This document shows, piece by piece, positions 2,643 through 24,372 of a DNA stretch of 41,062 nt. Made by a program: the position numbers and the translations under genes. The notes under the pieces were generated by a model that was not told the DNA's origin, did not search any database, and saw nothing but the letters and a program-made list of their open reading frames with translations. The stretch covers positions 1-41,062 of the IMG/VR virus record IMGVR_UViG_2939177367_000003; one strand, 5' to 3'. This stretch comes from a virus. Taxonomy: Duplodnaviria > Heunggongvirae > Uroviricota > Caudoviricetes. Position 1 is the first letter of the stretch, and each line of letters opens with the position of its first letter.

Positions 2643-2985
2643 CTAGTAGTCATTGAACCAAATAAAAAGCATGAATATGGCACTTAGAGTATTAATCAAT
2701 CGATTACTATACAATCACTAACTCGTTTAACCAGAATTTATTACACTGCGTTATTATTTGTTTCTGAAATTTTTATTATGAGTCCCCCCATCAATTCTCT
2801 GTAAGAGAGTATGTGTATCAAGTAGTAGAATGAATTAACAATCAGCAGGCAGATCACTAGCTAAAATTTATGCAATCAAGCGTCAAAATGTATTATATAT
2901 TTACCAGCCATCTGGTATTCTTACCAAGATCCCCTTAGAATAATCAATAAATTTAATTTTTATTTAAAATATGTAGGCACTACTT

Positions 2986-4020
2986 ATGAGAAATGAAAAA
3001 ATTGATTTTTTAAGATTTCTTGGACTATCACTTATTGTGCTGGCTCATGTTAATCCGCCGTTAATAATTTCACAACTTAGAAATTTTGATGTACCATTAA
3101 TGTTTTTAGTTATGGGAATGTCTTTTTTCATAACTGAGTCAAGGCATACATCAACCTTTAACTACATAGCATCTAGGTTTAAACGGCTTGTAATTCCAAC
3201 ATGGTTTTTTTTCTCGTGTTTTTACATTGTTAGCGAGCTAATCTGGATGTATCAGGGACATTCAGAGTTTAAATACAGTGCAGGAACAATTGCTGCAACT
3301 TTTGCTTTATCTACCGGCATAGGTTATGTATGGGTAATAAGAATTTTTTTTAGTGTATCTATTTTAGCCATACTAACACCCAAATCAATATTAAACGCTT
3401 CCATTTATAAAATAACGTTCCTATCATTCGGCTTTATTATATTAAATACGTATTTCCTATCTTCTTTTTACGAATCTTTAGATGTAAATATAAGAGCTCT
3501 TGAAATAGGAACATTTATATCAAGCACCGCGGTTTATTTATGCGTATTTCTTATTGGATATAAGATATTACAGGAAGACAGAAATTCTATAATATTTATC
3601 TTATTTATAAGCGGTGTTATTTTTACAGTTGTGATGTCGTATTTGATGACACGAGAGGGTCACTTCATTCCTACTCAAGAAGATAAATATCCACCTGGAA
3701 TTTACTATATTTCATTTGCAATATTTATGTCTTTAGCATTTTTTGTGACTTCAGAAAAACTCATAAAAGCATTAAGCTACTCAAAATTATGGGGAATAGT
3801 GATGTTCATTTCATCAAATTCAATCTGGATTTATTTATGGCATATTGCTTTCATCGTTAACATAATAAATTTAAATATTAATTTCATGTTTAAATATATA
3901 CTTGTTTACTCATTTTCTATTGCTATTGTATTTATACAGGTTAAGCTAATTAAAAGCATAACCTCCACAATCAAAGATGATAGAAAGTCAAAGATTTTGA
4001 ATCAAATTTTTACAGGTTAA
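2986..4020 (+). CDS. Integral-membrane acyltransferase (acyltransferase-3 family), putative O-antigen/LPS acetyltransferase
   Basis: N-terminal KIDFLRFLGLSLIVLAHV motif (IDxLRxxxxxxxxxH), about 10 predicted transmembrane segments, very AT-rich gene with AT-rich upstream region; position next to int/gtrA is typical for serotype-conversion genes. Confidence 0.5.
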   Translation: MRNEKIDFLRFLGLSLIVLAHVNPPLIISQLRNFDVPLMFLVMGMSFFITESRHTSTFNYIASRFKRLVIPTWFFFSCFYIVSELIWMYQGHSEFKYSAGTIAATFALSTGIGYVWVIRIFFSVSILAILTPKSILNASIYKITFLSFGFIILNTYFLSSFYESLDVNIRALEIGTFISSTAVYLCVFLIGYKILQEDRNSIIFILFISGVIFTVVMSYLMTREGHFIPTQEDKYPPGIYYISFAIFMSLAFFVTSEKLIKALSYSKLWGIVMFISSNSIWIYLWHIAFIVNIINLNINFMFKYILVYSFSIAIVFIQVKLIKSITSTIKDDRKSKILNQIFTG

Positions 4021-4027
4021 CTAATTA

Positions 4028-4058
4028 GTGATTCGGCGTGATAATTACGCCGAATCAC
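4028..4058 (+). terminator. Stem-loop immediately after the acyltransferase stop
   Basis: Perfect 12-bp inverted repeat GTGATTCGGCGT / ACGCCGAATCAC with 7-nt loop; T-tract weak. Confidence 0.45.
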
Positions 4059-4449
4059 TTCTTAAGAAATATTTGTAAGAATATATTCTCTCCACAGGAA
4101 TATTTGAATAATATGCTATCAATTAATTAAATAACTTACTTTTAGCATGAATAACCCAAGTAAAGAACATCTCCTGAGGAAGTAGCTTTTCAGAATCCCC
4201 CCTACAAGGTTGAGGAATTCCAAGAAAACAAGACAGGCATAGAGTTTTGTGATCTACTGATTGCGCTAACTAATTCAATGAGATCACCTCTATGGCTGCC
4301 CGTAAAGTATGCCAGACTTTTTTCCATAATGATTTAGCTTCCACTCATCAGTATCGACAAAATGCCATTATTGATTCCGCTGCTGCTTAAGTCGGGGCGC
4401 ATATCTTTCTCTTAGCAGCATTGGTCGGCATTTACCCGGCCCTGCTCGA

Positions 4450-4845
4450 GTGAAAGATAAAATAAAACGCGTTGACCGTCTGCTGGGTAATACGCGACTT
4501 CATAATGATATCCCTCTGATATTCAAAAATATTACCTCCATGATGATAAATAAACTGTCGTGGTGTGTTATCGCTGTTGGCGGGAGCTGTTACCCTTTTC
4601 AGGAATACCATTTCCTTCGGGCCAGCCTCCTCTGCGACGGTCGCGCTATCCCCCTGATGAGTCAGGTATTCCAGTCAAAAAATAAAATAACGAGGCGGCT
4701 GAAATCGCTTTTCTGGATGCGCTTTCCGCGACCATTTCTCCCCGGACTCGTGTTGTTATTGTTACTGTTGCCGGTTTTCAAAGTGCATGGTTCCGTAATA
4801 TCAAATAACTGGGGTGGGATTTTATTGGCCGTATCAGGGGGGTAA
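4450..4845 (+). pseudogene. IS4-family (IS10-like) transposase fragment
   Basis: Translation KIKRVDRLLGNTRLH...LRASLLCDGR parallels IS10 transposase residues ~55-180 (NIKRIDRLLGNRHLH...LRASVALHGR); N- and C-terminal parts missing or frameshifted. Confidence 0.5.
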
Positions 4846-4966
4846 TGAAGTTGAGGCTGGATAGTGACAAAGATTAATGCTGGACATAAATATGTGTAGG
4901 GGGTGTTCAGAGGCAAAATACCTGGGGATCAGAACCCTGTGTAACTTCGCATTTTTTCTGGGTTAA

Positions 4967-5100
4967 TTGGCGCGCAATTCTGGGCGGGGAGAGCGCAACC
5001 AAAAAGCCAAGAATTGGCCGCTAACTTATTAGTCTCATGCTGATGATTTGCCCTCAAAAAATCAGCTCATATCCTGCACAGTTCAACGTATTGCGTTGTA
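4967..5100 (+). pseudogene. Possible degenerate 3' remnant of a Din-family serine invertase (gin/pin-like)
   Basis: Frame-broken translation G*LARNSGRGER ... LPSKNQLISCTVQRIAL resembles invertase C-terminus GLAAARNKGRIGGR ... IPRKQVALIYDVALSTL; this is where gin/pin sits in Mu and e14. Weak, by eye only. Confidence 0.25.
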
Positions 5101-5175
5101 AATCGGTGTTCTGGTCATTTGTTGATACACGTACATAGCCAATAAGCATGGTAGATCTCCCTGACAAAAGCAGGA

Positions 5176-5697
5176 ATGATGTCATTTGCTCGTTATTTCT
5201 GCACTTTCATAAACGTTGGTTTGGGAGAAGGTTCGGCATTACCCGTTGGTGTGCCTGTTCCGTGGCCTTCCGCCACTCCGCCAACAGGCTGGCTGAAATG
5301 CAACGGTGCGGCATTTTCTGCTGAAGAATACCCGGAACTGGCAAAGGCTTACCCGACAAATAAATTGCCTGATTTACGCGGTGAGTTTATTCGTGGCTGG
5401 GATGACGGGAGAGGCATTGACCCAGGAAGGATTCTATTGGCTTCACAGGAGCATGCAATGCAAAACGTCACTGGTTCAATAGGGAAAATTCAGCTTTTTA
5501 GAGATTTAGTTATCAGTGGTCCATTTCGTCATAACGGTAATAACTATCTGACTACTGGATTAACAGCGGTTACAGGCCAAAATAGTGGAGGGAGTGGTGT
5601 CACAACATTTGATTTCGATATGTCAAGGGTGGCAAATACCGCCAATGAAACTCGCCCGGTGAACGTTGCATTTAACTACATTGTGAGGGCTGCATAA
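5176..5697 (+). CDS. Alternative tail-fibre C-terminal (receptor-binding) cassette with tail-collar motif; lacks its own N-terminal constant part
   Basis: Tail-collar-like motif WLKCNGAAFSAEEYPELAKAY...LPDLRGEFIRGWDDGRGIDPGR; reading frame passes through the left crossover site at codons GLGE; no tail-fibre N-terminus upstream. Confidence 0.6.
   Translation: MMSFARYFCTFINVGLGEGSALPVGVPVPWPSATPPTGWLKCNGAAFSAEEYPELAKAYPTNKLPDLRGEFIRGWDDGRGIDPGRILLASQEHAMQNVTGSIGKIQLFRDLVISGPFRHNGNNYLTTGLTAVTGQNSGGSGVTTFDFDMSRVANTANETRPVNVAFNYIVRAA
5204..5229. repeat. hix/gix-like recombination site, left boundary of invertible tail-fibre segment
   Basis: Reverse complement TTCTCCCAAACCAACGTTTATGAAAG shares a 15-nt core (CTTCTCCCAAACCAA) with the site at 7094-7119, in inverted orientation; resembles hixL TTCTTGAAAACCAAGGTTTTTGATAA. 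Confidence 0.6.
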
Positions 5698-6299
5698 TGG
5701 ATAACGCTGTATTAAATAGCGAGTTTATTGCTACGAAGGCAGGGGATATTACTGTTTATAACTATGATGGTGAAACTCGGGAATATATTTCCTCTTCAAA
5801 TGAATATCTTGCCATTGGTGTCGGTATCCCTGCGCATTCCTGTTTAGACGCCCCTGGTGCATATAAGGATGGTTATACAATTTGCCGCTCTGTGGATTTA
5901 AAATCATGGGAATATGTGCCAGACCATCGAGGAGAAACTGTTTACAGCACTGAAACAGGAGAATCGGAAGGAATCACAGCTCTGGGTGATTACCCTGAAA
6001 ATACAACCACTATCTCCCCGTTAACGCCATATGATAAATGGGATGGTGAGAAATGGGTGACAGATACCGAGGCACAGCATAGCGCCGCAGTAGACGCGGC
6101 AGAAGCACAGCGTCAGTCACTGATTGATGCTGCAATGGTTTCCATTAGTCTGATTCAGTTGAAATTGCAGGCCGGGCGGAAGCTGACGCAGGCAGAAACC
6201 ACCCGGCTTAACGCTGTGCTGGATTATATTGACGCGTTGACGGCAACAGATACCAGCACCGCGCCGGATGTCATCTGGCCTGAACTGCCGGAGGCGTAG
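5697..6299 (+). CDS. Tail fibre assembly protein (Tfa), partner of the + strand cassette
   Basis: Tfa-like translation (MDNAVLNSEFIATKAGDITVYNYDGETREY...); convergent with second tfa; C-terminal ...DALTATDTSTAPDVIWPELPEA. Confidence 0.75.
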   Translation: MDNAVLNSEFIATKAGDITVYNYDGETREYISSSNEYLAIGVGIPAHSCLDAPGAYKDGYTICRSVDLKSWEYVPDHRGETVYSTETGESEGITALGDYPENTTTISPLTPYDKWDGEKWVTDTEAQHSAAVDAAEAQRQSLIDAAMVSISLIQLKLQAGRKLTQAETTRLNAVLDYIDALTATDTSTAPDVIWPELPEA

Positions 6300-6669
6300 G
6301 CCATTCAATATCTGGCGTACTGGAAGTAGCGACCAGTTCCAGTGCGTCCAGATAATCCATCCACAAATTATATTGCGCCAGTTCCTCACCTTTCAGACGA
6401 CCAATAGCCGCTTTACCGGGCCACTGTTTACTGTTCATGTATTCGTTAGCCTGGTTAATTAGTAGCTGTCTTTCTGATTCAGTAATTTCAATAAGCTCTT
6501 CATGCGTGGGTGGAGGAATATCAGCCCACGCAGGCAGCGCATCATCTCCGGCAATACGGACTTTTCCTTGTGGCGGTTCAGCCATAAACTCACTGACAAT
6601 ATTTTGATTCACTTCTTTCACATCTGATAAATCCCATCCCTCTGATTTATATTTATCAATCATATCCAC
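6271..6669 (-). CDS. Tail fibre assembly protein (Tfa), partner of the expressed tail fibre
   Basis: Tfa-like C-terminal half (...LWMDYLDALELVATSSTPDIEWPTPP); immediately downstream of tail fibre gene. Confidence 0.75.
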   Translation of the reverse strand: MDMIDKYKSEGWDLSDVKEVNQNIVSEFMAEPPQGKVRIAGDDALPAWADIPPPTHEELIEITESERQLLINQANEYMNSKQWPGKAAIGRLKGEELAQYNLWMDYLDALELVATSSTPDIEWPTPPAVQAR

Positions 6670-6733
6670 AGGGAAAAAGCATTATGTCTGGCACTATAAA
6701 CATATTCGTTCATATAAATCATCCTGAATAAAA

Positions 6734-7396
6734 TTACTCGCCAACAGTCCACCAACAGTAATTCATGGTAACAGTTGGACTTGTCGAGGTTGTTCTAAAG
6801 GCAGAATAAAACCCTGTTAACCCTGGCTCTTCAGTTGTCATCATAAAACCACGACCGCTCCCGGCAGTTGAACCACCATCACCAGAATGTGAAAGCAAGA
6901 CAATATCAGCTTTTTTAGGGAAAGGTATATTAAATTCTACCCGTAGTATCTGACTCGCAAGCGTAGGAGACACACGCCCACGACCATATTGCAGGATTTT
7001 CCCGTTGGGTAATTTCATCCATCCATCACCACTGGCAAAAGAGGCCATGTCCGGTATCTGATTTTCCCCTGTTCCCACATTTCGTTTCGCCGCTTCTCCC
7101 AAACCAAGGTTTTCGAGAGCTGTTTTCACCGTGCCATCCGATTTTATATCGCCAAACGGATTCTTGCGGCTTAACAGCAGCGCACGAAGCGCGGTAAGCA
7201 GCTGGTCATGCCGCCCCTTCTCCAGGCTGGCACCGGATGCCTCCACAACGCTGCAAAGCTCCTCCTGCAACATGTCAAAGTAGTCATCATCCAGATCGGT
7301 GGCAGGCGTGCCAGTCTGGGGGTTACCACGGGTAAAACCGTTCTTACCCGCGCCGAACTTATCCTTCTGCGCGGTTTTCGTGTCTATACGATGCAT
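6734..7396 (-). CDS. Tail fibre protein (constant N-terminus plus currently expressed variable C-terminus)
   Basis: N-terminal [46 protein letters not shown] motif typical of Mu/e14-type side tail fibres; right crossover site lies inside the gene at codons [11 protein letters not shown]. Confidence 0.7.
7094..7119. repeat. hix/gix-like recombination site, right boundary of invertible segment (inside tail fibre gene)
   Basis: TTCTCCCAAACCAAGGTTTTCGAGAG; about 20/26 identity to Hin hixL; inverted partner at 5204-5229. Confidence 0.6.
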
Positions 7397-7399
7397 GGA

Positions 7400-7984
7400 T
7401 TACTCCGGATATTTAAAAATTACGTAGGTATGCGACGGGCAGAGTTTGTTAAGCACACATTCGACAACGGTGTCGCCCCAGATACGCAGTGCGGAATCAC
7501 AGGGATCGCCACATGTCATCCAGGTGGTGTTGGTGGCGGCTGGCATGTTGACCTGCCAGTAATACCGCCATTCAGGCGCGTTCACCGCGTCAGTACAGGT
7601 CGATGAGCAGGTGAACGTGCTTTTGTCGTATCGCGTGATGGTGGCATCCGGTCTGCCCAGGGCAGCAAGCTGTGCAAGATAAAAATCCTCGTTGATGCCG
7701 CCCGCCAGGTTAACCTTCGCATCCAGCCGTTGCTGACGCTGGCGAAGGGTCTGTGTCCCTGCGGGAATACATTCATCCGGCAGACCGCACAGACGCTCCC
7801 AGCGGTTTATCAGTTCATTGGTGGTGCGCGGATCCAGCTCCCGCATCAGGGCATCCGCACGCTGATGAACGCGGGTTAATGACGGTGCCGCACCGGCAAT
7901 CGCCGGATCGCTGGCTGACCACGCCGGACCGGGGGGCAACAGTGCCGACAACAGACGGATGTAATCATCGTTTGTCACGTCCAT
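7400..7984 (-). CDS. Phage tail protein (Mu gp48 / e14 YmfQ-like)
   Basis: 194 aa; directly upstream of tail fibre in Mu-like gene order. Confidence 0.55.
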
Positions 7985-9033
7985 GAAATCGTCCCCAGTA
8001 CCGCCAGTTCATTTTTTGCAATGGAGATATTGTCTGCCGGTGCAAGCAACTGATGGCTGTATTCCCCGTTCGCACCGGAAATCGCCTCACTGATACGCGA
8101 TACCTTCAGTTCTCCCTGCGGATAACCATCACGCAGCAGGAACGAACGCAACTCCGCGGTAATGGCAGCCCGTATTTCCGGTGTGTCCGGCGTCACACGG
8201 ATATGAAAATCCACCGTATGTGCCACCGGCCTGAACACATACAAATCAGAGCCTGCCACCGGGGCCAGTGGCCCGATATGTTGTCTTGCCGCCGTTTCCG
8301 TTGATTCTTCCGGAATGGGATTAATCAGGTCACTGCCGGCAATCATCACACCGACAGTCCCCGTTCCCATCCAGTGTCGGTATGTCCATGCGCGGGTAAT
8401 GCCGGGCACTTCTTTAGCCCAGACAACATAGTCCCCGTCAGCCCCGCCCTGAGGCGTCCAGTAATATCGCTCAATGACGCGGGCGCGCCACGTTTCCAGA
8501 TCTTCAGTATCGAATCCGCCAGTCAGGGTATCTGCCACACCGGAAGACGGCAGACCATTCACCGGCGTGACCAGGATTAATGACGTACCGTCGTCAGCGT
8601 TACCGACCGCACCTGCACTTGAGCAGGCGATCGGCACGCGCAGGACACCACCGGAGCTGGTTGCATCGGCAGTTGCCGTGTACTGAACCAGGTCATCGCG
8701 CTGAATAACACTCCCGGCGGTCACCTTCAGCCCATCGCTGACACCTTCCCAGCGCATATACCCGCTGGCAGCAGTGGCCCCCTTGCGCGGACACCGTTTC
8801 ATCGCAGCATGTCGCGCCAGCCAGGACTCATCGCACAGGTCAGGCAGCATGTTCATTGCCAGATAATCGATGTAACCGTAAACCGTATGTAGCGCCGCCG
8901 CATACACCTTTGCCCGCACGTCTTCATCCATGCGCCGGAGCGTGTCGCTGACGTCCAGCCTGGCGAATAAATCGTTACGGAGCATACTGATATTTTCTGC
9001 CAGCGTCGGGCGCTGAAATTCACTGTCCGCCAT
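7975..9033 (-). CDS. Baseplate J-like protein (Mu gp47-like)
   Basis: 352 aa; position and size in Mu-like baseplate cluster. Confidence 0.6.
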
Positions 9034-9448
9034 GCGTTATCGCACTCCACAGATCATCAAAAGAAATCATTACCGGTCCGTCACGACGCCAGAGAGTGAT
9101 ACTGTTACCCAGTTCATTAATCCCGGTGCGGCGGATATCCAGATCAATACGGGACACCACGCCGTCATCAGTCATCCATTGCAGGCATTCGCGGATATAT
9201 CCCCTTACCGTCTGCACCAGCTGATTGGTCAGTTTGCTGCGCTGAAGCAGCCACAGCCGGGAGCCGTAACGGTCATTCTGTACCGCAGGCCAGGTATCCC
9301 CCCACCATCCCATCGGGACGTCGGCGTTGTCATCAGGCTCCGCCCGCCGCCAGGTAAACAGGGAAATCACCACGGCGCGGGTCAGCGGATCCAGCGGTGC
9401 GCTGGCGCAGGTGCGTTTACCGTTCACCGTCAGCCACAGTTCCATCAT
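9020..9448 (-). CDS. Baseplate protein (Mu gp46 / GPW-like)
   Basis: 142 aa; synteny within Mu-like baseplate cluster. Confidence 0.5.
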   Translation of the reverse strand: MMELWLTVNGKRTCASAPLDPLTRAVVISLFTWRRAEPDDNADVPMGWWGDTWPAVQNDRYGSRLWLLQRSKLTNQLVQTVRGYIRECLQWMTDDGVVSRIDLDIRRTGINELGNSITLWRRDGPVMISFDDLWSAITHGGQ

Positions 9449-9993
9449 GCCTCCATCGCTTTATCAGGTTTGTCGGTGTTACTGCCCTGACCGTTCTCTC
9501 TGTGACGATGCCCGTTATAGGCAAGCCGCATCGCTGACATGGTGGTGCCGCCGGAGTCGCACAGGTCTTTCACCTGTCCGGTCACTTCCAGGTCCATTTC
9601 AAAACGTGCTCTGGGTGCATTGCGAAACGTGATCGTTTTACCTGCACCGTCCACCACGATCCCCTCCCGGGTCAGCGTCACGGACTGCCCCTGATCGTCA
9701 TAGACAGCCACCTCACCCGTCTGCAGCCCTTTCAGGCGGTAGCGCCGGTCCGACACCGTAACAACCACCGCATGAGAACGGTCGCCATCCGGAAACAACA
9801 CCACCGCTTCCGCACCGCTGTTTGCCCTTGCGGTAAAACCGTAGGGTTCAAGATGTTCAACCCCTGCTTTGGGTTCACCGGCAATCAGGGACACATCCAC
9901 GGTCTGACATTTCGTGGCGGCACTGATGCTTTTCACCACGGCCCGCCCAATCAGGCCGAGGAGTTGTCGCTGCATGGCTTCAATCGTCCTCAT
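9445..9993 (-). CDS. Baseplate assembly protein V / spike (Mu gp45-like)
   Basis: 182 aa; synteny. Confidence 0.55.
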   Translation of the reverse strand: MRTIEAMQRQLLGLIGRAVVKSISAATKCQTVDVSLIAGEPKAGVEHLEPYGFTARANSGAEAVVLFPDGDRSHAVVVTVSDRRYRLKGLQTGEVAVYDDQGQSVTLTREGIVVDGAGKTITFRNAPRARFEMDLEVTGQVKDLCDSGGTTMSAMRLAYNGHRHRENGQGSNTDKPDKAMEA

Positions 9994-11072
9994 CAGAACG
10001 GGTCCTCCTGTACTCTGGCTTTTTTCTTTTTCCGCGCGCCGGGGGCTTCGGGTTCAGGCAGATAAGCATCAGGTGGGCCGACACGGATTTCCGTCAGGGT
10101 GCCGTTCTGGTCCTGAGTAAACGTGACTTCCGAAACAAGCAGTTCGGTATTGTCGAAACCACAGACCGGATCGAAGACAATCACCCGCTGGTTGGGCTGC
10201 CACAACGTGCCGTTACCCTGTCGCCAGCCCTGCACCACATAGGTGGTTTCATCCGTCCGCGCCGCCCGTTGTCGGGCTTCAAAGTCCGCACGGGCAATAC
10301 AGCCTGCCCCCGTGGCCTGCCCTGTCTGCCTGATATACATCGGACGGTAACGGGCAATAAATGCGTCCTCTGTGCGGGCTCGCAGCGCGGTGGTGGTGGC
10401 CTCACCGAAATCATCGTCGTTTCCGGCACGCTGCCCCGCCACCTGGTAAACTGAAAACCGCTCCCGGATACTCTTCTCCGTATCGCAGGAAAGGATGTTT
10501 TCCCCAAGTACCAGCGCGGTATGTGCCCGCGTTGAGCCAATACCGCCAATCACCAGCCTGCCGTGCGGGTCGTCGTAAGCCAGTGCCTGCTGCTGACCGA
10601 GTATTTTGTTGATCACCTCAATCACCGTTTCGCCGTGATCAGGCTGGACGTCAGGAATAACACCCGACGGCGCACCGTTGTTCACCACCTCAATGCCGAA
10701 AGGCGCAGCAAGCACCTGCGCAATCTGTACCAGCGATCGCCCGTTAAACTGTGTCGGTTCGGCTGCACAGTCAATCAGGTCAGCGGTCAGACTGCGTCCG
10801 GCAATACCGGTGCTGACCGAACGGGCATCGTAACGAACGGGCGTCGCCTCCACCCAGCCGGTGATCACCAGCTCATCACCAATCAGCACCTCCACTTTTG
10901 AACCGTTTTTAATGCGCGGCTGAAGCGTGGTAATACCCTCATCTCCCGGCCACTGGCGGGTGATCTCCACACTGAAATCCCGCGCCAGCCGTTCAATACC
11001 GGCACCGATGCGCACCGATGTCCAGCCATTCCACTCCCGGCCATTTACCCGTAGCGTGACATTGTCGTTCAT
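9993..11072 (-). CDS. Baseplate hub / tail protein (Mu gp44, P2 gpD-like)
   Basis: 359 aa; synteny between gp43-like and gp45-like genes. Confidence 0.55.
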   Translation of the reverse strand: MNDNVTLRVNGREWNGWTSVRIGAGIERLARDFSVEITRQWPGDEGITTLQPRIKNGSKVEVLIGDELVITGWVEATPVRYDARSVSTGIAGRSLTADLIDCAAEPTQFNGRSLVQIAQVLAAPFGIEVVNNGAPSGVIPDVQPDHGETVIEVINKILGQQQALAYDDPHGRLVIGGIGSTRAHTALVLGENILSCDTEKSIRERFSVYQVAGQRAGNDDDFGEATTTALRARTEDAFIARYRPMYIRQTGQATGAGCIARADFEARQRAARTDETTYVVQGWRQGNGTLWQPNQRVIVFDPVCGFDNTELLVSEVTFTQDQNGTLTEIRVGPPDAYLPEPEAPGARKKKKARVQEDPF

Positions 11073-12439
11073 TGCACTGGCACCTTCAGAGGGATCACCG
11101 GCACAAAGCCGGGATGCGTAATGGCATTACGCCGGATAATGTCCCCGTCACGCGCCGCGTTATCAAACCAGGTCGCCGCCAGCACCAGCGCGGGTAAAAC
11201 CTCATCCGGCGTGCGCTGAATGATCCGTGCAGACTGTTCAAGGCGCGTGTTGATATCCGCATTCAGATCTGCTTTCACCCGGCGCAGCGCCAGAAACAGC
11301 GCATCACTGGTTGTACGGGACAACTCCTTATCAATTGCCGTATTCAGTGTGTCGCGAATGTCAGTCAGTTCTTCCCACGTTGGCAGGTCAACCGTGCTTT
11401 TCACCGCCGGTGCATTGTTCAGTGCCGGATGCGTGACGGAAGGCCAGCCAGTGCTCTGCGCGGGTGTTGTTGCCTGCCCCACTGCGGCATTCTTCATCAC
11501 CGCGGAAGTTGTTGGCGCAGGCAATCGGGTGACGGCATACGCCGCTTCGCTGATTGCGGTCGTACGAAGGATGCTGGCAACCACGTTACGCTGCTGTGTC
11601 GCCGTGGCGGTGGTTTTACTGTCCGTTTTCCAGACGCCGCGCGGTTGCAGATCGCTGCCAAGGCTGACACCGGAAAGCGTTTTGATCATGGTGACCAGGT
11701 CGCTGGCGTTACCATAAAGGCGTTTCCCGGTACGCCACATTTTCTGCACCTGCTCAACGAAATTTTTGCCTGACGATGGCGGCGGCAGAAGTACCGAGAT
11801 ATCCCCCTGCAACAGCCTGGCGGCATCCGATACGGCAGAATCCACCACTTTCATCGCATCAGAAACATACCCCAGCATTGTGCTGGCATTACCGACGACG
11901 TCGTTCTGCACAAAATCCGCCACGCCATCGATACTGAAACCTCTGAAACTGTCACTGATGCAGTCATCCAGTGCAGAACAGGATGACATCAGCGTCTGCG
12001 CCGTCGCCGCACCTGATGTGGGGTAAGAGAGCTCTCCTGCTTCGACAAACTTCAGGTCAAAGCGGACAATACGTCCTTCACTTTTCGATGTGCTGACCCG
12101 AACTTCCCCGTCAACACAGACTTTCAACTCACCGTATGTCGGATGGACAAGCGTGCCGGGACCGGGTTTATTCAGCGCGTCAATCAGGCGATCGCGCTGG
12201 TCAAAGCAGTCATCTCCCACCACATAAGCCGTGATGGACGGGCGGAAAGTGATTTTCCCCAGGTCTTCGGTATAGGGTTTGTCGCGGTTCGGGTATTCGT
12301 GCGTTTCCACACGACGGCCAGTTCCCGCACTTTCTTCTTCAACCTTAAACGGCACACCGCGAAATGACGCGTCCTGAAGTCTGTCTTTCCACGTCATATA
12401 AACTCCGTACATAAAAAATCCCACCGGAGTGGGACTCAT
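11069..12439 (-). CDS. DNA circularisation protein N-like (Mu gp43-like)
   Basis: 456 aa; directly downstream of tape measure gene. Confidence 0.5.
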   Translation of the reverse strand: MSPTPVGFFMYGVYMTWKDRLQDASFRGVPFKVEEESAGTGRRVETHEYPNRDKPYTEDLGKITFRPSITAYVVGDDCFDQRDRLIDALNKPGPGTLVHPTYGELKVCVDGEVRVSTSKSEGRIVRFDLKFVEAGELSYPTSGAATAQTLMSSCSALDDCISDSFRGFSIDGVADFVQNDVVGNASTMLGYVSDAMKVVDSAVSDAARLLQGDISVLLPPPSSGKNFVEQVQKMWRTGKRLYGNASDLVTMIKTLSGVSLGSDLQPRGVWKTDSKTTATATQQRNVVASILRTTAISEAAYAVTRLPAPTTSAVMKNAAVGQATTPAQSTGWPSVTHPALNNAPAVKSTVDLPTWEELTDIRDTLNTAIDKELSRTTSDALFLALRRVKADLNADINTRLEQSARIIQRTPDEVLPALVLAATWFDNAARDGDIIRRNAITHPGFVPVIPLKVPVQ

Positions 12440-12457
12440 TAACAGATTAATTTTTCA

Positions 12458-14293
12458 TTACCTGCCAAAGCGCGTATAGCCAACATCATGGCTGACATCA
12501 AAACCGCTGGATCGCGTTTCCATAACCCGCATACCCGGAGGCGAATTCACAAAAGAGACCTTGATCTCACCATCAACTTTTGGCGCAGAAGCTTTGTTAA
12601 TCATGAAGGGATTCGGGCCTGTGGCATCGGAGGCGTTGTTTGACTGAGCCAGATCTACCGCCGGATAAGGTGTGTATCCCCGCGCCGGTATTCCCGTCCC
12701 ATAAGCATCATAAGCACCCGCGCCCCACTGCGCAGAGTTAATGGCATCGACCGTGTCACCGGAACTGTCGGTAAACCACTCAATAATTGGCTTCAGCTTG
12801 TCCCACATATCCTGAAACCACTTAACAACCGGCCCCCAGTTATTGATCACCATCCCCAGCGGCGACCAGGCAAAAACTTTCTTAAGGAGTTCCCAGCCAG
12901 CCTCAAAATAAGGACCAATGGTTTCCCAGAGTTTCTTAAAATAAGGTCCGACAACATCCCAGTTAGTGATAATTAATCCCGCAGCCAGGGCTATCGCCGT
13001 CGCAATCATGCCAATCGGCGTCATCGACATGATCCTGCTGACAATACTGATGGCACCGCCAACGCCCATCAATCCCAGTTTCAGAATCGCAAGACCGGCA
13101 GCAAGCCCGACGACGCCGCGAATAACCCGGGGATTTTCATCCGCAAACTTCGTGAATTTCTCCCCCAACTCCCCCAGCCATTGCGTGATATTTTTAGCGT
13201 CACCAGAAAATGCACCGCCAATAGCCGCAAGGCCGTTAGTTGCGGTCCCTGTCATTGCCTCCCACAGGTTGGACAGCGTACCAAGCTGTGCCTGAACACG
13301 TTTATTCAGGCTGGCCTGTTTATTCATCTTCTGCTGGATCTGATCGTAACCATCCTTTCCTTTATCAATCAGAGCATTGACCACCTGAAGGGTTTCAGCA
13401 TCATCACCAAATATTGCCTTAAGTACACCAGTTCGTTTAACGTCGGTCAGTTTTCGCAGCTTTGCCAGTTGCCTGAACATGTTATCAAGACCGCCAAAAC
13501 TCCCTTTGCCGTCAGTAAAATCGAGCTGTACCCCGAGTTTCTGGCGGGCCATGACTTTATTGACGTCCCTGATTTTCTTAACGCTTAATCCGGACTGGAT
13601 AACTTTTCGCAGGGCGTTACCTGCCGACTCCCCGTTCATCCCCATCTGATCCATCATGACGCTGATGGGGGCAAGGCTCTGTGCAGCCTGAAGACCGTCC
13701 TTGTTCACCATCTTCAGAACAGAACTGGTTTTAGTGAAGAAGGACAACATGTTGGTATCGTCAACGCCCAGATAAAACGCCTTCTGGATAGTATCGAACA
13801 GCCCCATCATGTCTTCTGACGCCGTTCCGGTAGCATCCTGCATCTTTGCAGCAAACTCAGCAGCCGCTTCCGGTGTTTTTTTCAGTTGTACCGCAAGATA
13901 AGCTGTCGCTTTACCCACACCACCCAGAATGTTTTCTGCCGGGATCCCCTGACGCACCAGCATCTGCATCATGTTCTGGAAATCAGCCGTTGTACCGGGT
14001 AGCTGGTTACCCAGGCCAATAGCCAGTTTATTGATGTCCTGAAAGCTCTTTCCAACCTCGCCGTTCGCATCCATCATGGCGACTTTCAGCCCGGTGGCGG
14101 CGTTTTCCTGATCGGCATAAGATTTCAGGGAAAGCGTCAGACCCGCTGCCAGTCCGCCACCAAGCGCCAGCCCACCCTGTGACGCTTCTTCCGCCTGGCG
14201 TTTAAATCCCCGGATTTTCTTTTGCATTTTCGACAGCGCGGGAGAAAGCCTGTCGACACCGGTGATCAACGCCTTAAGCTCAAATTCAGCCAT
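12458..14293 (-). CDS. Tail tape measure protein
   Basis: 611 aa, Ala/Gly-rich with hydrophobic C-terminal region; located after tube and chaperone genes. Confidence 0.75.
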   Translation of the reverse strand: MAEFELKALITGVDRLSPALSKMQKKIRGFKRQAEEASQGGLALGGGLAAGLTLSLKSYADQENAATGLKVAMMDANGEVGKSFQDINKLAIGLGNQLPGTTADFQNMMQMLVRQGIPAENILGGVGKATAYLAVQLKKTPEAAAEFAAKMQDATGTASEDMMGLFDTIQKAFYLGVDDTNMLSFFTKTSSVLKMVNKDGLQAAQSLAPISVMMDQMGMNGESAGNALRKVIQSGLSVKKIRDVNKVMARQKLGVQLDFTDGKGSFGGLDNMFRQLAKLRKLTDVKRTGVLKAIFGDDAETLQVVNALIDKGKDGYDQIQQKMNKQASLNKRVQAQLGTLSNLWEAMTGTATNGLAAIGGAFSGDAKNITQWLGELGEKFTKFADENPRVIRGVVGLAAGLAILKLGLMGVGGAISIVSRIMSMTPIGMIATAIALAAGLIITNWDVVGPYFKKLWETIGPYFEAGWELLKKVFAWSPLGMVINNWGPVVKWFQDMWDKLKPIIEWFTDSSGDTVDAINSAQWGAGAYDAYGTGIPARGYTPYPAVDLAQSNNASDATGPNPFMINKASAPKVDGEIKVSFVNSPPGMRVMETRSSGFDVSHDVGYTRFGR

Positions 14294-14468
14294 GTGTGCG
14301 TTTCTCCTGCTCTATCCTGTTTGCCTGACTGACCAGTAAGGGAATTTCACTGATCGGCATATTCAGCAATTCGAAAGGATTAATGCGCCAGTAGCTGGCG
14401 CAGTCAAAGAAGCGATCAGTGAGGTATTCAGCCGTCAGGCCTGGAGGAAAAAACCAGCCACAAGCCAC
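14286..14468 (-). CDS. Tail assembly chaperone -1 frameshift extension (P2 E'-like)
   Basis: Overlaps the 3' end of the chaperone ORF in the -1 frame; slippery T_TTT_TTC at 14447-14453 (minus strand); translation DRFFDCASYWRINPFELLNMPISEIPLLVSQANRIEQE. Confidence 0.55.
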   Translation of the reverse strand: MACGWFFPPGLTAEYLTDRFFDCASYWRINPFELLNMPISEIPLLVSQANRIEQEKRTHG

Positions 14469-14704
14469 GCCGCTGCATTCAGGTCTGCCGGAGACATCTG
14501 GTCGACAGAGCTTTGCGGCACTTTCGCCAGCCGCACAATGTATTTCGACACCACATGCGCCAGAAGTCTGACGGACTCATCCTGATTCATCTGGTAGGGA
14601 TACCCAAGCTCGCGGACATCCTTCCCGGTGGGTTCATCAAACTCCAGTACGGAGAGTGTCTCGCCATGAGCGATAATCGGTTTCTTTAACTCAAGCTCTT
14701 TCAT
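14435..14704 (-). CDS. Tail assembly chaperone (Mu gp41 / P2 gpE-like)
   Basis: 89 aa between tube and tape measure genes; ends ...AGFFLQA across the slippery run. Confidence 0.6.
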   Translation of the reverse strand: MKELELKKPIIAHGETLSVLEFDEPTGKDVRELGYPYQMNQDESVRLLAHVVSKYIVRLAKVPQSSVDQMSPADLNAAAWLVAGFFLQA

Positions 14705-15060
14705 TACTGGTAATCCCCTTCTTCACCGTGGAACTCAAGATCAACCGTGCCTTCTTCGGCATTATGGTTCGCTTCGCCGTGCAGCCAGGCAGACGACAGT
14801 ACATAGACCTGACCGTTCGCCAGCTCGGCAGTGATGGTCATCTCATCAGACGAGGTGATTTTGCTCACCGGAAAATTCTTCGGCACCTTGAAGGTCCCTT
14901 TGACATAAGGCGCACGGTGAGTTTCCTTGCGGTCCACTGAACCGTCCAGGCCGATGATGTCATCATTGACCGTCCTGTTCATGGGCACCTCAATGCCGCC
15001 GGTCAGCGATAGCTGCTGACCGTCAATTTTGAAATAACAGGTTCCCCCGATACGGGCCAT
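14704..15060 (-). CDS. Tail tube protein (Mu gp40-like)
   Basis: 118 aa immediately downstream of sheath gene. Confidence 0.6.
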   Translation of the reverse strand: MARIGGTCYFKIDGQQLSLTGGIEVPMNRTVNDDIIGLDGSVDRKETHRAPYVKGTFKVPKNFPVSKITSSDEMTITAELANGQVYVLSSAWLHGEANHNAEEGTVDLEFHGEEGDYQ

Positions 15061-16556
15061 TATGCAGACTCCTCTGAATACTGAAGACGGAACTGGTTAA
15101 CCACGGCAAAAACACGCAACTGGTTAACATAGTCAGGCGGGAACAGCGTGTTCAGGCGGTTCGGATCGCTGGCATCACGCTCAACAACCAGGTACTGCTT
15201 AAACAGTTCGTAGTTTTCCACGATCCCCGCACGCTCAAGCTGACGGTAGGTTGCCAGCAGTTCCCCTTTGATTACCGCCGGGGTGACAATCGCCTGACCG
15301 GGACCAAAGCGGGTACCGTCGCTGGCAAGCTTGTGACGCCCGTACTTACTGGTAATGACGGATTTCAGTTTGCGCAGTACATACGCACTGGTATGCAGCG
15401 TCTCGCTGTCGAGGTAGCTGTTATCCGCAACCCCGTAAGCATTTTTCCTGTACGTGGTGACATCACGCTGAATGCGCAGCCCCCCGCTTTCGACATACGC
15501 CGTTGCCACGCCATGAGACAGCAGGGTCTGCTGCTCGGTCATCGTGAACCGTTTCCCCTTCGGCGCAGGCAGCATACCCACCAGCTCACCGGTCTGCGTG
15601 GGACGTGCCGGATCGTTGCGGATAAACACCGCTGCGCGGGCGGTACGGCTTGCCGCCAGCTCGTCGGCAGGCGTCTGGGTCTCTTTTTCGTACCCCGCCA
15701 GGGTGATGTGCTGCTGGTTAAACTGGTCACCTGCGTTCACCAGTTCTGACAGTGTGCCGGTCTTTGCCGTATACACATGACCATACAGCTGACGCGCATA
15801 GCTCCAGCGACCGCTGGTATCGTTCATCTCGGTCACCAGCGTGTTAACGGAGGCCGTGTCGTTGAACGGCAGGCCGATATAATCAAACGGCTCATCCGCC
15901 ATTGCAGCCACCGCGCCGGTGAGAACAGGAGAGCCCGTTCCGGCGGTCCCCGTCGCCACGGCAATCTGTACGCCCGCAGGCAGCACTTCGCCCCCACCAA
16001 AGCCGTAGTAATTGAGGCTGACAGGAATTTCATTCCCGCAAAGCCCCTTATGACGCGCGGTCAGTGTGACCACGCCTGCCGAAGATGAAGCCGTAAACGG
16101 CAGGGCCGGAACGGCATTGATGGCATCTTTGATACTGCTGGCAATCGTCGTGACGTTATCGCCGTTGGTCACCGGAGCCTGCACGCGGGTACGTCCCACA
16201 TAGACATTCACCGTGCCGGTTTCGGTTGCCTCCCCGGTCACCGTCAGCGTAACCGTTGCCGCCGCGCCTGTGGATTCAGGAACGGCAATCACATACAGCT
16301 CGCCAAACGGGTCGGTCTGGCGATAAGCCTCGACCATACGCGCCAGCTGACTTCCCGCACCACAAATCTGGCGTGCATAGTCTGCCGACGGCATCAGTAC
16401 CAGACTGTTGGCAACAATCTCTGCACCGTTATTGGCATGACCAATCAGCAGCGATGCTCCGCTGTCCTGTGCAGTATTCGCCGCCTGGTTATCCATTTCC
16501 GCATAAAACAGCGGAACCAGCGTATTCGACGGAATGGTGTTAAAGCTTATCGTCAT
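15060..16556 (-). CDS. Contractile tail sheath protein (Mu gp39-like)
   Basis: 498 aa; position upstream of tube gene. Confidence 0.7.
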   Translation of the reverse strand: MTISFNTIPSNTLVPLFYAEMDNQAANTAQDSGASLLIGHANNGAEIVANSLVLMPSADYARQICGAGSQLARMVEAYRQTDPFGELYVIAVPESTGAAATVTLTVTGEATETGTVNVYVGRTRVQAPVTNGDNVTTIASSIKDAINAVPALPFTASSSAGVVTLTARHKGLCGNEIPVSLNYYGFGGGEVLPAGVQIAVATGTAGTGSPVLTGAVAAMADEPFDYIGLPFNDTASVNTLVTEMNDTSGRWSYARQLYGHVYTAKTGTLSELVNAGDQFNQQHITLAGYEKETQTPADELAASRTARAAVFIRNDPARPTQTGELVGMLPAPKGKRFTMTEQQTLLSHGVATAYVESGGLRIQRDVTTYRKNAYGVADNSYLDSETLHTSAYVLRKLKSVITSKYGRHKLASDGTRFGPGQAIVTPAVIKGELLATYRQLERAGIVENYELFKQYLVVERDASDPNRLNTLFPPDYVNQLRVFAVVNQFRLQYSEESA

Positions 16557-16710
16557 CGGTGTTCACCTTTTTATTCACGCGCCGGATATCACCCGCTGCT
16601 TCACGGCGCAGCCAGTAGTTGTTCTCGTCAACATTTCGCCCTTCGGCGGGCAAAAGGTCGCCGCGGGCAGGGTCAGGAACTGACCGCCCTTTAACAGGTT
16701 TGACAAACAT
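16540..16710 (-). CDS. Small protein preceding sheath gene (Mu gp38-like), 56 aa
   Basis: Short ORF MFVKPVKGRSVPDPARGDLLPAEGRNVDENNYW... overlapping the sheath start; not in the supplied ORF track (below length cutoff). Confidence 0.3.
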   Translation of the reverse strand: MFVKPVKGRSVPDPARGDLLPAEGRNVDENNYWLRREAAGDIRRVNKKVNTDDDKL

Positions 16711-16718
16711 GAAGATTC

Positions 16719-17279
16719 TCAGGTAGGAAGGGTTATTTCGGTGTGATGTTCGATATCGCCGTCAGGCCCGTTACCGGGATCGAGATAATCAACATCAATC
16801 GCCAGCGTTCGCAGTTCATCCAGACTGTTCAGGTCATCCTGCTGGCGGGTATCGTCTTCGGTCAGCTCGCTGATGACCGAAAAATCGAACTGATAAATCA
16901 GCTCATGACGATTCAGATCCAGCAGCGTGCCGCCGTCATAGGTAATCGGGTTACCGCACGCCTCCGGGTTCCAGCCCAGCAGAGCCTTAAAGAGCATCTG
17001 CCGGACATCGTCCACCACATCATACGAGGCAAACTGACCGCGCTCATCACGCCCGTTACTCAGTATGACAACCACGGAGAAACCCTCTTTCAGCTCCTGC
17101 CAGTAGTCGGTCTGGCTTTTGTTTTCTCCCGGAGAATCATCACCCGGTACCACATACGCCGCCGGGAGTCTCAGCTTTCCGACCTCCGGCAGATTTTTGA
17201 ACTGTGCCGCGCCTGCCACCCGGTTTTCAAAATACGGACAGCGGGCACGCAGTGCAGCAATAACGGGCGTCAGTTTCAT
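16719..17279 (-). CDS. Tail completion / neck protein (Mu gp37-like)
   Basis: 186 aa; synteny only. Confidence 0.35.
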   Translation of the reverse strand: MKLTPVIAALRARCPYFENRVAGAAQFKNLPEVGKLRLPAAYVVPGDDSPGENKSQTDYWQELKEGFSVVVILSNGRDERGQFASYDVVDDVRQMLFKALLGWNPEACGNPITYDGGTLLDLNRHELIYQFDFSVISELTEDDTRQQDDLNSLDELRTLAIDVDYLDPGNGPDGDIEHHTEITLPT

Positions 17280-17782
17280 CTGTGTCGTCGCTCCGGCTTC
17301 AGTGATTTACGCAATTCCCGCGCCAGAAAATAGCGTGTCCAGCTGCGGTTCTTTTCAAGAGTTTCCACCATGAAGTTATTACGTGGAGCCAGTCGCCAGC
17401 CGCTGCCACCGGATGCACCACGATGATGGCCGCGACGACGCTTTGCCCCTCGCCTCACGCCATAGAACAAAAAAGCCGGATAAAAATCACCGGTGATACG
17501 GCGGTTTCCCTCTCCATTACGCTGGTTAGGGGCTATACGTGCCATAAAACCAGGGCGATGTTTACTGGCTCTGGGTACCATGTAACCAATTGAACGAGCC
17601 AGGCGTCCGGTCTGATAACCGGGGTTTTCACCCGGTGCCGACCGCGCACGGCGCATCACCAGCCGACGGGCATCACGCATATGACGCTGACCAATCGTGA
17701 CAAACGCCCGCCGGACACGGGCGCGGTTAAAGCGCATCTCCGCGGGCTGCTGAAAATCAACGTGCAAAAAGGAAGTCGTCAT
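17276..17782 (-). CDS. Head-tail joining / virion morphogenesis protein
   Basis: 168 aa, Arg-rich; synteny only. Confidence 0.35.
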   Translation of the reverse strand: MTTSFLHVDFQQPAEMRFNRARVRRAFVTIGQRHMRDARRLVMRRARSAPGENPGYQTGRLARSIGYMVPRASKHRPGFMARIAPNQRNGEGNRRITGDFYPAFLFYGVRRGAKRRRGHHRGASGGSGWRLAPRNNFMVETLEKNRSWTRYFLARELRKSLKPERRHR

Positions 17783-18167
17783 TGTTGCCTCCGTGACTCT
17801 GCCTACATTCGCCCAGCTCCGTACACTCCAGCAGCAGAAAGCGCCGCGCCCCGTTCAGATCGCGCTGACGTTTCACCCGGTACACACTGTCACCGCAGAC
17901 CACCTCATAATCAGCGGTGATCCCCCGGCGGTAACGAATGGTGATGTAATGGGTGATGGCGTCCCCGGTCTGCGCGGTTTCCTGCCAGGTGGTGGCACTG
18001 GTCTGGATAACCTTCGCCCATGTCCGGAACGTAACCGGGTATTGAGGCTCCACGCCAAAGTTATCCGCGGGCATATCCACCCGCTGGCGGATCAGGACGC
18101 GTTTATTCAGTTCACCGGGGTCCGGCAGAATGTAGGTTGCGCTGGTCTGCGCCTGACGAATTTTCAT
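17757..18167 (-). CDS. Head-tail adaptor protein
   Basis: 136 aa; synteny only. Confidence 0.4.
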   Translation of the reverse strand: MKIRQAQTSATYILPDPGELNKRVLIRQRVDMPADNFGVEPQYPVTFRTWAKVIQTSATTWQETAQTGDAITHYITIRYRRGITADYEVVCGDSVYRVKRQRDLNGARRFLLLECTELGECRQSHGGNNDDFLFAR

Positions 18168-18487
18168 TGCGGGAAATACCTGTACGGGCCGACAAGCCAG
18201 TTAAAGCTCATTGGCAACTCCATTTTCTCAACGTCTGTAACCGACGAGCGATTTTCGTAAAAATGGCTGATAAGCATCAGCATCCCCAGACGAATATCAT
18301 CCGGCAGGTGCAGCCCGTCCGGATCGCTGTCCGGAATGGTTTCATCCGGAGCATAGAGCTTCCGGTTCAGATACGTTTCCGTCCGCTTTTGCGCCGCACA
18401 GGCCAGCAGTTGCAGATGGCGGTCATCAGCATCGAAATCCTCATCCAGCCGGAGTTGGGCTTTAATCTCTTCCATTGTCAGAAGCAT
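18164..18487 (-). CDS. Head-tail connector protein (gp6-like)
   Basis: 107 aa acidic protein downstream of major capsid gene. Confidence 0.45.
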   Translation of the reverse strand: MLLTMEEIKAQLRLDEDFDADDRHLQLLACAAQKRTETYLNRKLYAPDETIPDSDPDGLHLPDDIRLGMLMLISHFYENRSSVTDVEKMELPMSFNWLVGPYRYFPQ

Positions 18488-18489
18488 AC

Positions 18490-18690
18490 TCAGCCCTCTT
18501 TACTGGTCGTGGCTTTTTTCTCTTTTGTCGCTTTACTGCTTTTTGCACTGGTTCCGCGCTCTGCTAACCCGGCCTGAAGTGCAATCTCCTGCACCCGGGC
18601 AGGAAGCGCCCCGTCGTCATACTCACCGGCCCGAATGACCTCAACACGCATACCGTCCGGTGACCATTTCAGATCTTGTTTCAGGATCAT
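18490..18690 (-). CDS. Small head-associated protein, unknown function
   Basis: 66 aa ORF between capsid and connector genes; Lys/Ser-rich C-terminus. Confidence 0.3.
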   Translation of the reverse strand: MILKQDLKWSPDGMRVEVIRAGEYDDGALPARVQEIALQAGLAERGTSAKSSKATKEKKATTSKEG

Positions 18691-18739
18691 GATTCTTCAC
18701 CCGTCAGAACAGGGGGCGCGGTTCCGCGCCCCTGAGTGA

Positions 18740-19945: not shown

Positions 19946-19959
19946 CGTATTTCTCCTGA

Positions 19960-21829: not shown

Positions 21830-22011
21830 TATTTACCTCCACCAACAGACAGCTGTGTACGGTCGAGATATCGCGCTACCAGCCACGACCAGAACAGGCA
21901 CAACGCCCCGGCAACAACAAACCCCGCCGGGGGATAAATCAGCCAGGCACCATACGCCAGCAAAAGCGCCCCCAGCACGCCCACCAGAGGCGCGAGAATC
22001 AGCATGATCAT
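21829..22011 (-). CDS. Small hydrophobic membrane protein, unknown function
   Basis: 60 aa with two predicted TM helices, tightly packed between terminase large subunit and portal. Confidence 0.3.
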
Positions 22012-22022
22012 AATTACCTCAG

Positions 22023-24256: not shown

Positions 24257-24372
24257 TCCTGGTTAAATTTCATTTTTCGCGGGTATAAAAAAACGATGGG
24301 GCGGGCAGTCCGGAAGACGTCAGGTCACAGGGATTTGACCCGCCCCTCCCCTCTGGCAGTGGGAACTAGTTC

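Follow-up and report, generated by a model that had tools for sequence, protein, structure and literature searches.

Can the invertible tail-fibre segment of a prophage remain active after the recombinase gene beside it has been cut to a stub? This question is raised by a locus in the IMG/VR virus record IMGVR_UViG_2939177367_000003, whose 41,062 nucleotides (nt) were analysed as a whole and are called the window in the following. In this locus, which belongs to a prophage resembling Shigella phage SfII, a fragment of an insertion sequence (IS), a short phage terminus and the beginning of a serine DNA invertase gene lie next to a segment bounded by two inverted crossover sites. According to the original prediction, an IS10-like element had destroyed the invertase gene; this named the right objects and the wrong mechanism. 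From the analyses presented here it appears likely that a Mu-like phage inserted into an ISSfl9 element, that a deletion followed, that the invertase stub was inherited in its truncated form, and that the segment is still inverted in trans.

Remnant of an invertase gene

The region 4850-5200 was translated in six frames and searched by tblastn with the recombinase of the E. coli C11 prophage, PinE of e14, Gin of Mu, and the invertase of SKA5. The sole significant match was located on the minus strand, from 5149 to 5057, and concerned the N-terminal end of the enzymes (E-values of 2e-16 for the C11 recombinase, 8e-15 for e14 pinE, and 5e-12 for Mu gin). It defines the 5' stub of a pinE-like serine DNA invertase gene at 5039-5149. 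Starting with the ATG at 5149, 31 codons can be read down to 5057, and the peptide of residues 1-31 is MLIGYVRVSTNDQNTDLQRNTLNCAGYELIF. Insertion of one T after codon 31 shifts the frame, which then ends with a stop at 5056-5054. At the nucleotide level, the similarity to intact genes is lost at 5039, at about codon 36, and about 111 nt of the gene are kept. The Pfam model Resolvase was matched by positions 2-27 only, with 21.2 bits under the gathering cut-off of 23.3. HTH_7 was not found on either strand. No intact invertase gene adjoins the segment, and no other invertase was detected anywhere in the 41-kb window.

An invertase remnant had been proposed for this interval before, in the form of a C-terminal helix-turn-helix (HTH) region of the Gin/Pin/Hin type on the plus strand at about 4967-5100. 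The string ARNSGRGER...LPSKNQLISCTVQRIAL is literally present on that strand. It yielded no Pfam family at E<=10, while pinE as a control gave Resolvase and HTH_7, and tblastn with pinE, gin, the C11 recombinase, and the SKA5 invertase produced no match to their C-terminal parts on either strand. The HTH reading was therefore rejected. What remains of the proposal is a remnant overlapping the interval, but on the opposite strand, from the other end of the gene, and with coordinates that were partly wrong, as 4940-5038 had been counted as invertase and is the terminus of a Mu-type phage.

The same breakpoint and the same extra T were found in the window, in E. coli E2348/69, in strains 2824 and 47-1826, and in tcmA_3. 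All Mu-like prophages of the E2348/69 sub-lineage join their terminus to an identical stub. In the RefSeq annotations of such E. coli loci, PGAP designates the stub as 'hypothetical protein, incomplete, missing C-terminus' (L004 4119-4211, L005 and L006 7121-7213, L013 5122-5214) and labels fibre fragments at the crossover sites 'integrase'. The identity of the stub and the presence of an inverton are therefore hidden by the annotation.

An orphan terminus of a Mu-like phage

The 99 bp between the IS fragment and the stub (4940-5038, plus strand) begin with TGTAACTTCGC. They are matched at 87-93% identity in complete E. coli genomes, 46 of which hold at least 80% of a 110-bp probe for this sequence. 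The starting base of the matches is the same to within 1-3 nt, and they lie beside different interrupted genes or regions, namely eutC, hyfB, mhpT, a molybdopterin oxidoreductase gene, the region upstream of melA, and others. When aligned base by base, the flanks were unrelated up to TGTAACTTCGC in every case compared. The element interrupting eutC in E2348/69 is about 35.7 kb long and contains at its far end genes for a repressor, a ner-like protein, a Mu transposase of 680 amino acids (aa), and a MuB-type ATPase; a repressor gene, a ner-like gene and a Mu transposase gene are likewise present at the far end of the element in hyfB of strain 2824. Short target repeats were detected at both, AGTG in E2348/69 (L005/L010) and GATG in strain 2824 (L006/L025).

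A target repeat of 5 bp is typical of Mu. Such a duplication fits only one of the two prophages checked, and both show repeats of 4 bp. Both ends of these prophages begin with TGT, and TTCTGGGC motifs are found at matching distances from the termini. The window terminus contains two TTCTGGG motifs 22 bp apart, at 4956 and 4978. The motif TTCTGGG(C) is located 17 and 39 nt from the right terminus as well as 18 nt and further in from the left terminus; with only five other copies in 41 kb, it is a candidate for a transposase-binding motif. The left end (attL) of this lineage reads '...CTACCCCACA'. Because the same base abuts unrelated genes at independent sites, with Mu genes at the far end, short target repeats and shared end motifs, the 99 bp are identified on sequence grounds as attR, the right end that a family of Mu-like transposable phages has in common. 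In the window it is an orphan relic, as neither MuA, MuB, a Mu-type repressor nor attL was found there.

Two sister Mu-like prophages, those of Ecol_AZ146 and STEC308, have the same end of about 95 bp directly after a fixed tail-fibre or assembly gene and lack a G segment. Over 4938-5229, the window is 93.5% identical to the Mu-like prophage of E2348/69.

The terminus and the stub might also be ancestral to the tail module of SfV/SfII phages, as a relic of hybridisation between a lambdoid phage and Mu, with the IS brought next to them by an unrelated deletion. Phages of the SfII type do have Mu-type tails, and some of them, such as SKA5, possess an invertible segment with an invertase gene next to int. 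However, the 99 bp and the stub are missing from SfII, SfIV, and SKA5, and the 99-bp terminus is contained in no record of the phage collection, which includes SfI and SfV; therefore, no isolated phage can be named as the donor either. The invertase of SKA5 and its upstream region are unrelated to the stub region at the nucleotide level, whereas the latter is 93% identical to present-day Mu-like prophages. In addition, the deletion would have to end by chance on the exact terminal base. This origin is considered quite improbable.

The interrupted IS element

To the left of the terminus, positions 4207-4939 (plus strand) are 92-93% identical to ISSfl9-type copies, which are IS10-like members of the IS4 family. 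They constitute the left 733 bp, or 56%, of the element. The intact copy in SfII, which sits in the same accessory region, comprises 1306 bp with 22-bp terminal repeats, AGGATGAGGAATCCCCAGAAAA and AGGCTGAGGGATCCCCAGAAAA. Comparison to such copies placed the left inverted repeat (IR) at 4207-4228; on the right side no IS end was met, the fragment breaking off abruptly at 4939, an internal position at about nt 733 of 1306. The right half and the right IR are absent, which leaves no element of about 1.3 kb with two IRs, and the other half of ISSfl9 was not detected elsewhere in the 41-kb window. The repeats, AGGMTGAGGRATCCCCAGAAAA, resemble the ends of IS10.

The 49 bp outside the left repeat (4158-4206) are shared with an ISSfl9-like copy on E. 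coli plasmid p0A3_5 (L002 1501-1550) and are lacking at the SfII copy. Within them lies TTTTCAGAATCCCCCC, a degenerate motif similar to an IR, which gives the impression of a second IS end adjoining the first.

The transposase gene of the fragment starts with the ATG at 4292. According to the tblastn frame map, residues 1-216 of 396 are left in four frame pieces; at least three frameshifts and in-frame stops are present, and the C-terminal 45% are gone. The open reading frame (ORF) 4450-4845, earlier described as a truncated IS10-like transposase of the IS4 family, was confirmed as such, since its residues 2-79 match positions 17-95 of the IS4-family transposase model NF033591 (E-value 1.7e-16), but it is only one frame piece of the larger fragment. 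The Asp residues of AVDWSG and VTDAGF in the SfII copy, presumed to be DDE residues, are Gly and Val in the window. The transposase is a non-functional relic.

IS fragment and invertase remnant are situated within 100 bp of each other, and insertion of the IS10-like element into the invertase gene, decay of gene and enhancer, and a frozen segment would be one interpretation. Hardly any credence can be given to it. The Mu-type terminus lies between the two, and the junction is at an internal position of the IS rather than at its end; the IS is itself the interrupted element. Moreover, the same stub with the same breakpoint, the extra T and the 99-bp terminus is found in the prophages in eutC, in hyfB, and near melA without an adjoining IS. 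As the stub occurs at many sites with no IS nearby, the truncation must predate this locus and was not caused by ISSfl9. The enhancer region is also kept, and the segment inverts in relatives and experimentally, as detailed below.

A junction between IS-internal sequence and an exact phage terminus is the signature of a phage transposing into an IS. The joint 4939/4940 could instead be attributed to illegitimate recombination or to an IS-mediated deletion, and with the other junction missing a target duplication cannot be checked. IS-mediated deletions, however, end at IS termini and not at an internal break, and on the phage side the joint falls on exactly the terminal base that is seen at several independent insertion sites, which makes an origin other than transposition highly improbable. 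A search for the exact junction in a collection with one genome per species gave no match.

Inversion at loci with a stub only

Evidence for inversion was obtained from pairs of closely related sequences. The prophages of E2348/69 and tcmA_3, located at different chromosomal sites, are 99.4-99.7% identical, and a segment of 1921 bp is inverted exactly between the crossover sites. In the lineage of the window, the part 2643-5230, consisting of the acyltransferase gene, the IS fragment, attR, the stub, and the left crossover site, recurs at 99.8% identity in at least five further assemblies. Two contigs, L017 and L014, have flanks that are 99.81% identical over 15.3 kb and a segment that is inverted with one mismatch in 1791 bp. 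Ten contigs among the matches listed have the identical 31-aa stub, two in the orientation of the window and eight in the flipped one. In the relatives, the inversion breakpoints fall within the crossover sites.

For E2348/69, experimental data are available. By paired-end sequencing and polymerase chain reaction, clonal cultures were found to be mixed, with 60+/-8% in forward orientation (Goldberg et al. 2014, PMC4272514). The inversion, reported there for NC_011601.1 2749478-2751398 and labelled 'Mu', corresponds exactly to the segment beside the stub (L005 7275-9195). The text of PMC4272514 contains neither 'in trans' nor 'enhancer', and the missing invertase is apparently not discussed. 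Two P2-like prophages with invertible loci of their own are also described for this strain (PMC4272514), and they are plausible sources of the enzyme.

Inversion is thus documented for near-identical relatives of the window and for the homologous locus in E2348/69. The invertases Gin, Cin, Pin, and Hin are interchangeable. The switch appears to be functional and served in trans, and an enzyme acting in trans would have to be provided in this host. The earlier view that the switch was lost together with its enhancer is contradicted by these results.

The four available assemblies of E2348/69 all show one orientation and are uninformative on inversion. They could be taken as a sign that the structure was assigned correctly and the segment is nevertheless frozen in the window, the two orientations reflecting an old polymorphism, exchange of whole segments, or choices made during assembly. 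The crossover sites are, furthermore, only 85% complementary over 27 nt. On the other side, a single mismatch in 1791 bp was found between opposite segments of loci otherwise 99.8% identical, the breakpoints lie exactly in the crossover sites, the central AA is common to both, and the clonal E2348/69 cultures were mixed 60:40 at a homologous locus with only a stub. A frozen segment is therefore regarded as unlikely.

The putative enhancer region of the stub

In known systems, the recombinational enhancer is part of the invertase gene. That of hin comprises 65 bp with two Fis sites 47 bp apart and is located about 99-100 bp from hixL, and in Mu an inversion-stimulating enhancer site has been described within gin. 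The first 93 nt or so of the stub can be aligned without gaps to Mu gin and e14 pinE. By analogy, a putative enhancer is predicted at 5065-5128 (minus strand) with two Fis-type 15-mers. The first, GTATCAACAAATGAC (5128-5114), occurs unchanged in gin and pinE and lies about 96 bp from the centre of the left crossover site; the second is GTGCAGGATATGAGC (5079-5065). From centre to centre they are separated by 48-49 bp, depending on the register. The internal enhancer had been thought to be destroyed, but the first 111 nt or so of the gene are kept and they include the part that bears the enhancer in gin and pinE.

The truncation point lies 26 nt beyond the distal Fis-type site. If a gene of about 580 nt were broken at random, the enhancer would be kept in about 85% of the cases, and in about 5% the break would be not more than 30 nt from its end. 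Retention of the enhancer could be fortuitous. An alternative, put forward tentatively and judged somewhat less probable than not, is that the 111-nt stub was selected as a stand-alone enhancer. A lineage of transposable phages that has shed its invertase would then maintain host-range switching with the invertases of co-resident prophages, as a recombinase-less 'satellite inverton', and the module would have been passed to an unrelated type of lambdoid phage together with the terminus. If the enhancer part were under selection, it might show additional conservation, but no such signal was obtained from the few sequences compared.

Crossover sites and tail-fibre cassettes

The best inverted repeat of the region is formed by 5204-5230 and 7093-7119. 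It contains the two 26-bp crossover sites, the left one at 5204-5229 with the reverse complement TTCTCCCAAACC-AA-CGTTTATGAAAG, and the right one at 7094-7119, TTCTCCCAAACC-AA-GGTTTTCGAGAG, inside the tail-fibre gene. The sites are inverted relative to each other with the same central dinucleotide, and their cores match the experimentally defined IRs of e14 and of the Mu prophage in E2348/69. The invertible segment between them (5230-7093) measures 1890 bp from centre to centre.

Two alternative cassettes are present in this segment. A silent C-terminal cassette of the Collar type (Pfam Collar) is part of the ORF 5176-5697 on the plus strand and is followed by its assembly gene at 5697-6299 (plus strand, Pfam Caudo_TAP). 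The expressed cassette at 6734-7093 (minus strand, Pfam Gp53-like_C) has its own assembly gene at 6271-6669 (minus strand, Pfam Caudo_TAP). In the present orientation, the tail-fibre gene extends over 6734-7396 on the minus strand and encodes 220 aa; its constant N-terminal part, 7396-7120, is SfII-like. Upon inversion in silico, the 220-aa fibre was replaced by an intact one of 256 aa, both fusions being in frame.

L017 is the closest relative of the window. Over 2643-7061 the two show 72 differences, 68 of them clustered in 5304-5594 and 5793-6032. These two patches are inside the silent Collar cassette and its assembly gene and look like gene conversion from another prophage. In E. coli 47-1826 (L004), a Mu-like prophage with a stub only, three copies of the crossover site were found at about 4270, at about 4712, and at 6579-6598, two direct and one inverted. 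Together with an extra fibre cassette they form a shufflon-like version with multiple inversions. Three relatives of the window prophage (L027, L028, and L029) have a large internal deletion that joins a small-terminase/TerL fragment to a fibre assembly gene of the segment; they are defective derivatives in which the stub and the gtr-acyltransferase end are kept.

The prophage carrying the locus

The window is occupied by a prophage from an IntS-type integrase gene (1-1158) to a position just before dsdC (40127-41062). Its flanks and dsdC match those of E. coli K-12 at 98.2% identity. The insertion site is argW beside dsdC, which in K-12 is occupied by the cryptic prophage CPS-53. Lambdoid modules are represented by CI, CII, O, a DnaB-type helicase, and Q, and the structural genes specify an HK97-type terminase, portal, and capsid together with a sheathed contractile tail of the Mu type. 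Positions 7400-24360 are 98.4% identical to Shigella phage SfII and 97-98% to SfI, SfIV, and SfV. By gene content and nucleotide identity, including the int-gtr end, the prophage is classified as a lambdoid member of the SfII/SfI/SfIV/SfV type with a Mu-type contractile tail, in a host of the E. coli type. A Mu-like prophage was considered as well and is ruled out by the lambdoid replication and regulation genes, the HK97-type head, and the lack of MuA and MuB. The composite scar described above is found in the accessory region, between the genes for O-antigen modification and those for tail fibres.

Within the O-antigen modification end, a complete IS5 with 16-bp IRs, GGAAGGTGCGAAYAAG, is located at 1447-2642. 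With 1301-1446 and 2643-2985 on either side, it stands in place of 3.3 kb of the relatives (L014 9447-12748), in which the 3' part of gtrA, gtrB, and a 546-aa gtrC-type gene are contained; a gtrA fragment is kept in the window. This copy of the prophage has therefore lost its capacity for serotype conversion. The tetranucleotides beside IS5 differ, with TTAG at one end and CTAG at the other, which suggests a deletion between two IS5 insertions or an adjacent deletion mediated by IS5. The following gene, at 2986-4020, belongs to Acyl_transf_3 and is a candidate for an O-antigen acetylase; a terminator hairpin is present at 4022-4064. The acyltransferase gene is 99.8% conserved in draft and metagenome contigs harbouring this prophage. 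A megablast search of 5,426 complete E. coli genomes gave no match to the acyltransferase region, and exact-protein look-ups gave no record for the acyltransferase and the Collar ORF.

Proposed history of the locus

The following course of events would account for the arrangement. A Mu-like phage of the E2348/69 eutC lineage, in which the invertase gene had already been cut to the stub of about 111 nt, may have transposed into an ISSfl9 copy located at, or close to, the end of an SfII-like prophage that holds the genes for O-antigen modification, and thereby produced the junction 4939/4940, where IS-internal sequence is joined to the exact terminus. Recombination in direct orientation between the tail-fibre regions of the Mu-like and the resident phage would then have removed the second IS half, all other Mu-like sequence, and the distal fibre genes of the resident prophage, so that attR, the stub of the invertase gene, and the left portion of the segment would be what remains. 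Nucleotide similarity between Mu-like and SfII-like prophages was detected only around the right crossover site (window 7093-7207), and the window is SfII-like from 7039 rightwards. Invertases of the Pin/Gin family from other prophages would invert the 1.9-kb segment in trans and exchange the 220-aa fibre for that of 256 aa. As a possible variant, the phage inserted into another copy of ISSfl9, which was imported later by homologous recombination.

Several observations weigh against this scheme. The other IS half and attL were not found in the window, and insertion followed by deletion is a reconstructed history. The interior of the segment is mosaic, and 5039-6537 is closest (93%) to the C11 prophage, which has tail sheath and tube genes, is probably P2-like, and possesses an intact invertase gene; the recombination joint cannot be placed exactly. 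The spacing of the Fis-type sites deviates from the 47 bp published for hin. Stub and attR diverge alike between the window and E2348/69, by about 7-8% each; since the stub is not better conserved than attR, selection on the enhancer is not demonstrated.

Comparison with known systems

These results correct the idea, attractive but wrong, that the switch was inactivated by an IS. A host-range switch of a phage may persist and stay active with its cis elements only, using the enzymes of other prophages, and in predictions of phase variation a locus without an adjacent invertase should not necessarily be considered frozen. The locus would also represent a molecular fossil of Mu-like transposition into an IS inside another prophage, and it would illustrate one route by which tail-fibre modules of E. 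coli and Shigella phages may be exchanged between the lambdoid and the transposable type.

With phages of its own type, SfII, SfI, SfIV, and SfV, and with CPS-53, the prophage shares structural genes at 97-98% nucleotide identity and the same type of int-gtrABC end. ISSfl9 and an acyltransferase gene are also part of the accessory region of the Shigella phages, and CPS-53 occupies the same chromosomal site. In SfII, however, ISSfl9 is intact, the tail fibre is fixed, and stub and attR are missing, while SfIV has a partial segment interrupted by another IS. The acyltransferases of the window and SfII are unrelated at the nucleotide level, and the gtr genes of the window have been deleted by IS5.

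The Mu-like prophage in eutC of E2348/69 has the same attR, stub breakpoint, frameshift, and crossover sites. In contrast to the window, it is a transposable prophage in complete form, which has the repressor, ner, MuA, and MuB genes; in the window only about 290 bp of the right end, and possibly part of the segment, have been grafted onto a lambdoid SfII-like prophage.

With the Fis/enhancer-dependent systems Gin/Mu, Pin/e14, Cin/P1, and Hin/Salmonella, the locus has in common two inverted 26-bp sites with a common central dinucleotide in a tail-fibre gene, a separate assembly gene for each of the alternative C-terminal fibre cassettes, and an invertase gene that begins about 55 bp beyond one of the sites and whose first 100 nt or so contain the enhancer, a putative one in the window. 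The IR of e14 is nearly identical to the crossover site of the window. The difference is in the recombinase gene, which is cut to 31-36 codons in the window, so that only cis elements are present and the enzyme must come from elsewhere. In Mu, gin is followed by com and mom before attR, whereas the stub adjoins attR directly in the window.

Action of one enzyme on the sites of another element is known from trans-complementation in the Din family, among Gin, Cin, Pin, and Hin and for PinQ and PinR, which are reported to act on cryptic-prophage DNA (PMC12529663). A cognate invertase is present at each segment in those cases, whereas the window would be obligatorily dependent on a foreign enzyme, a condition that persisted through transposition to many sites. 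Against the well-known Gin/Pin system, an invertible segment without its own invertase that is served in trans is modestly novel.

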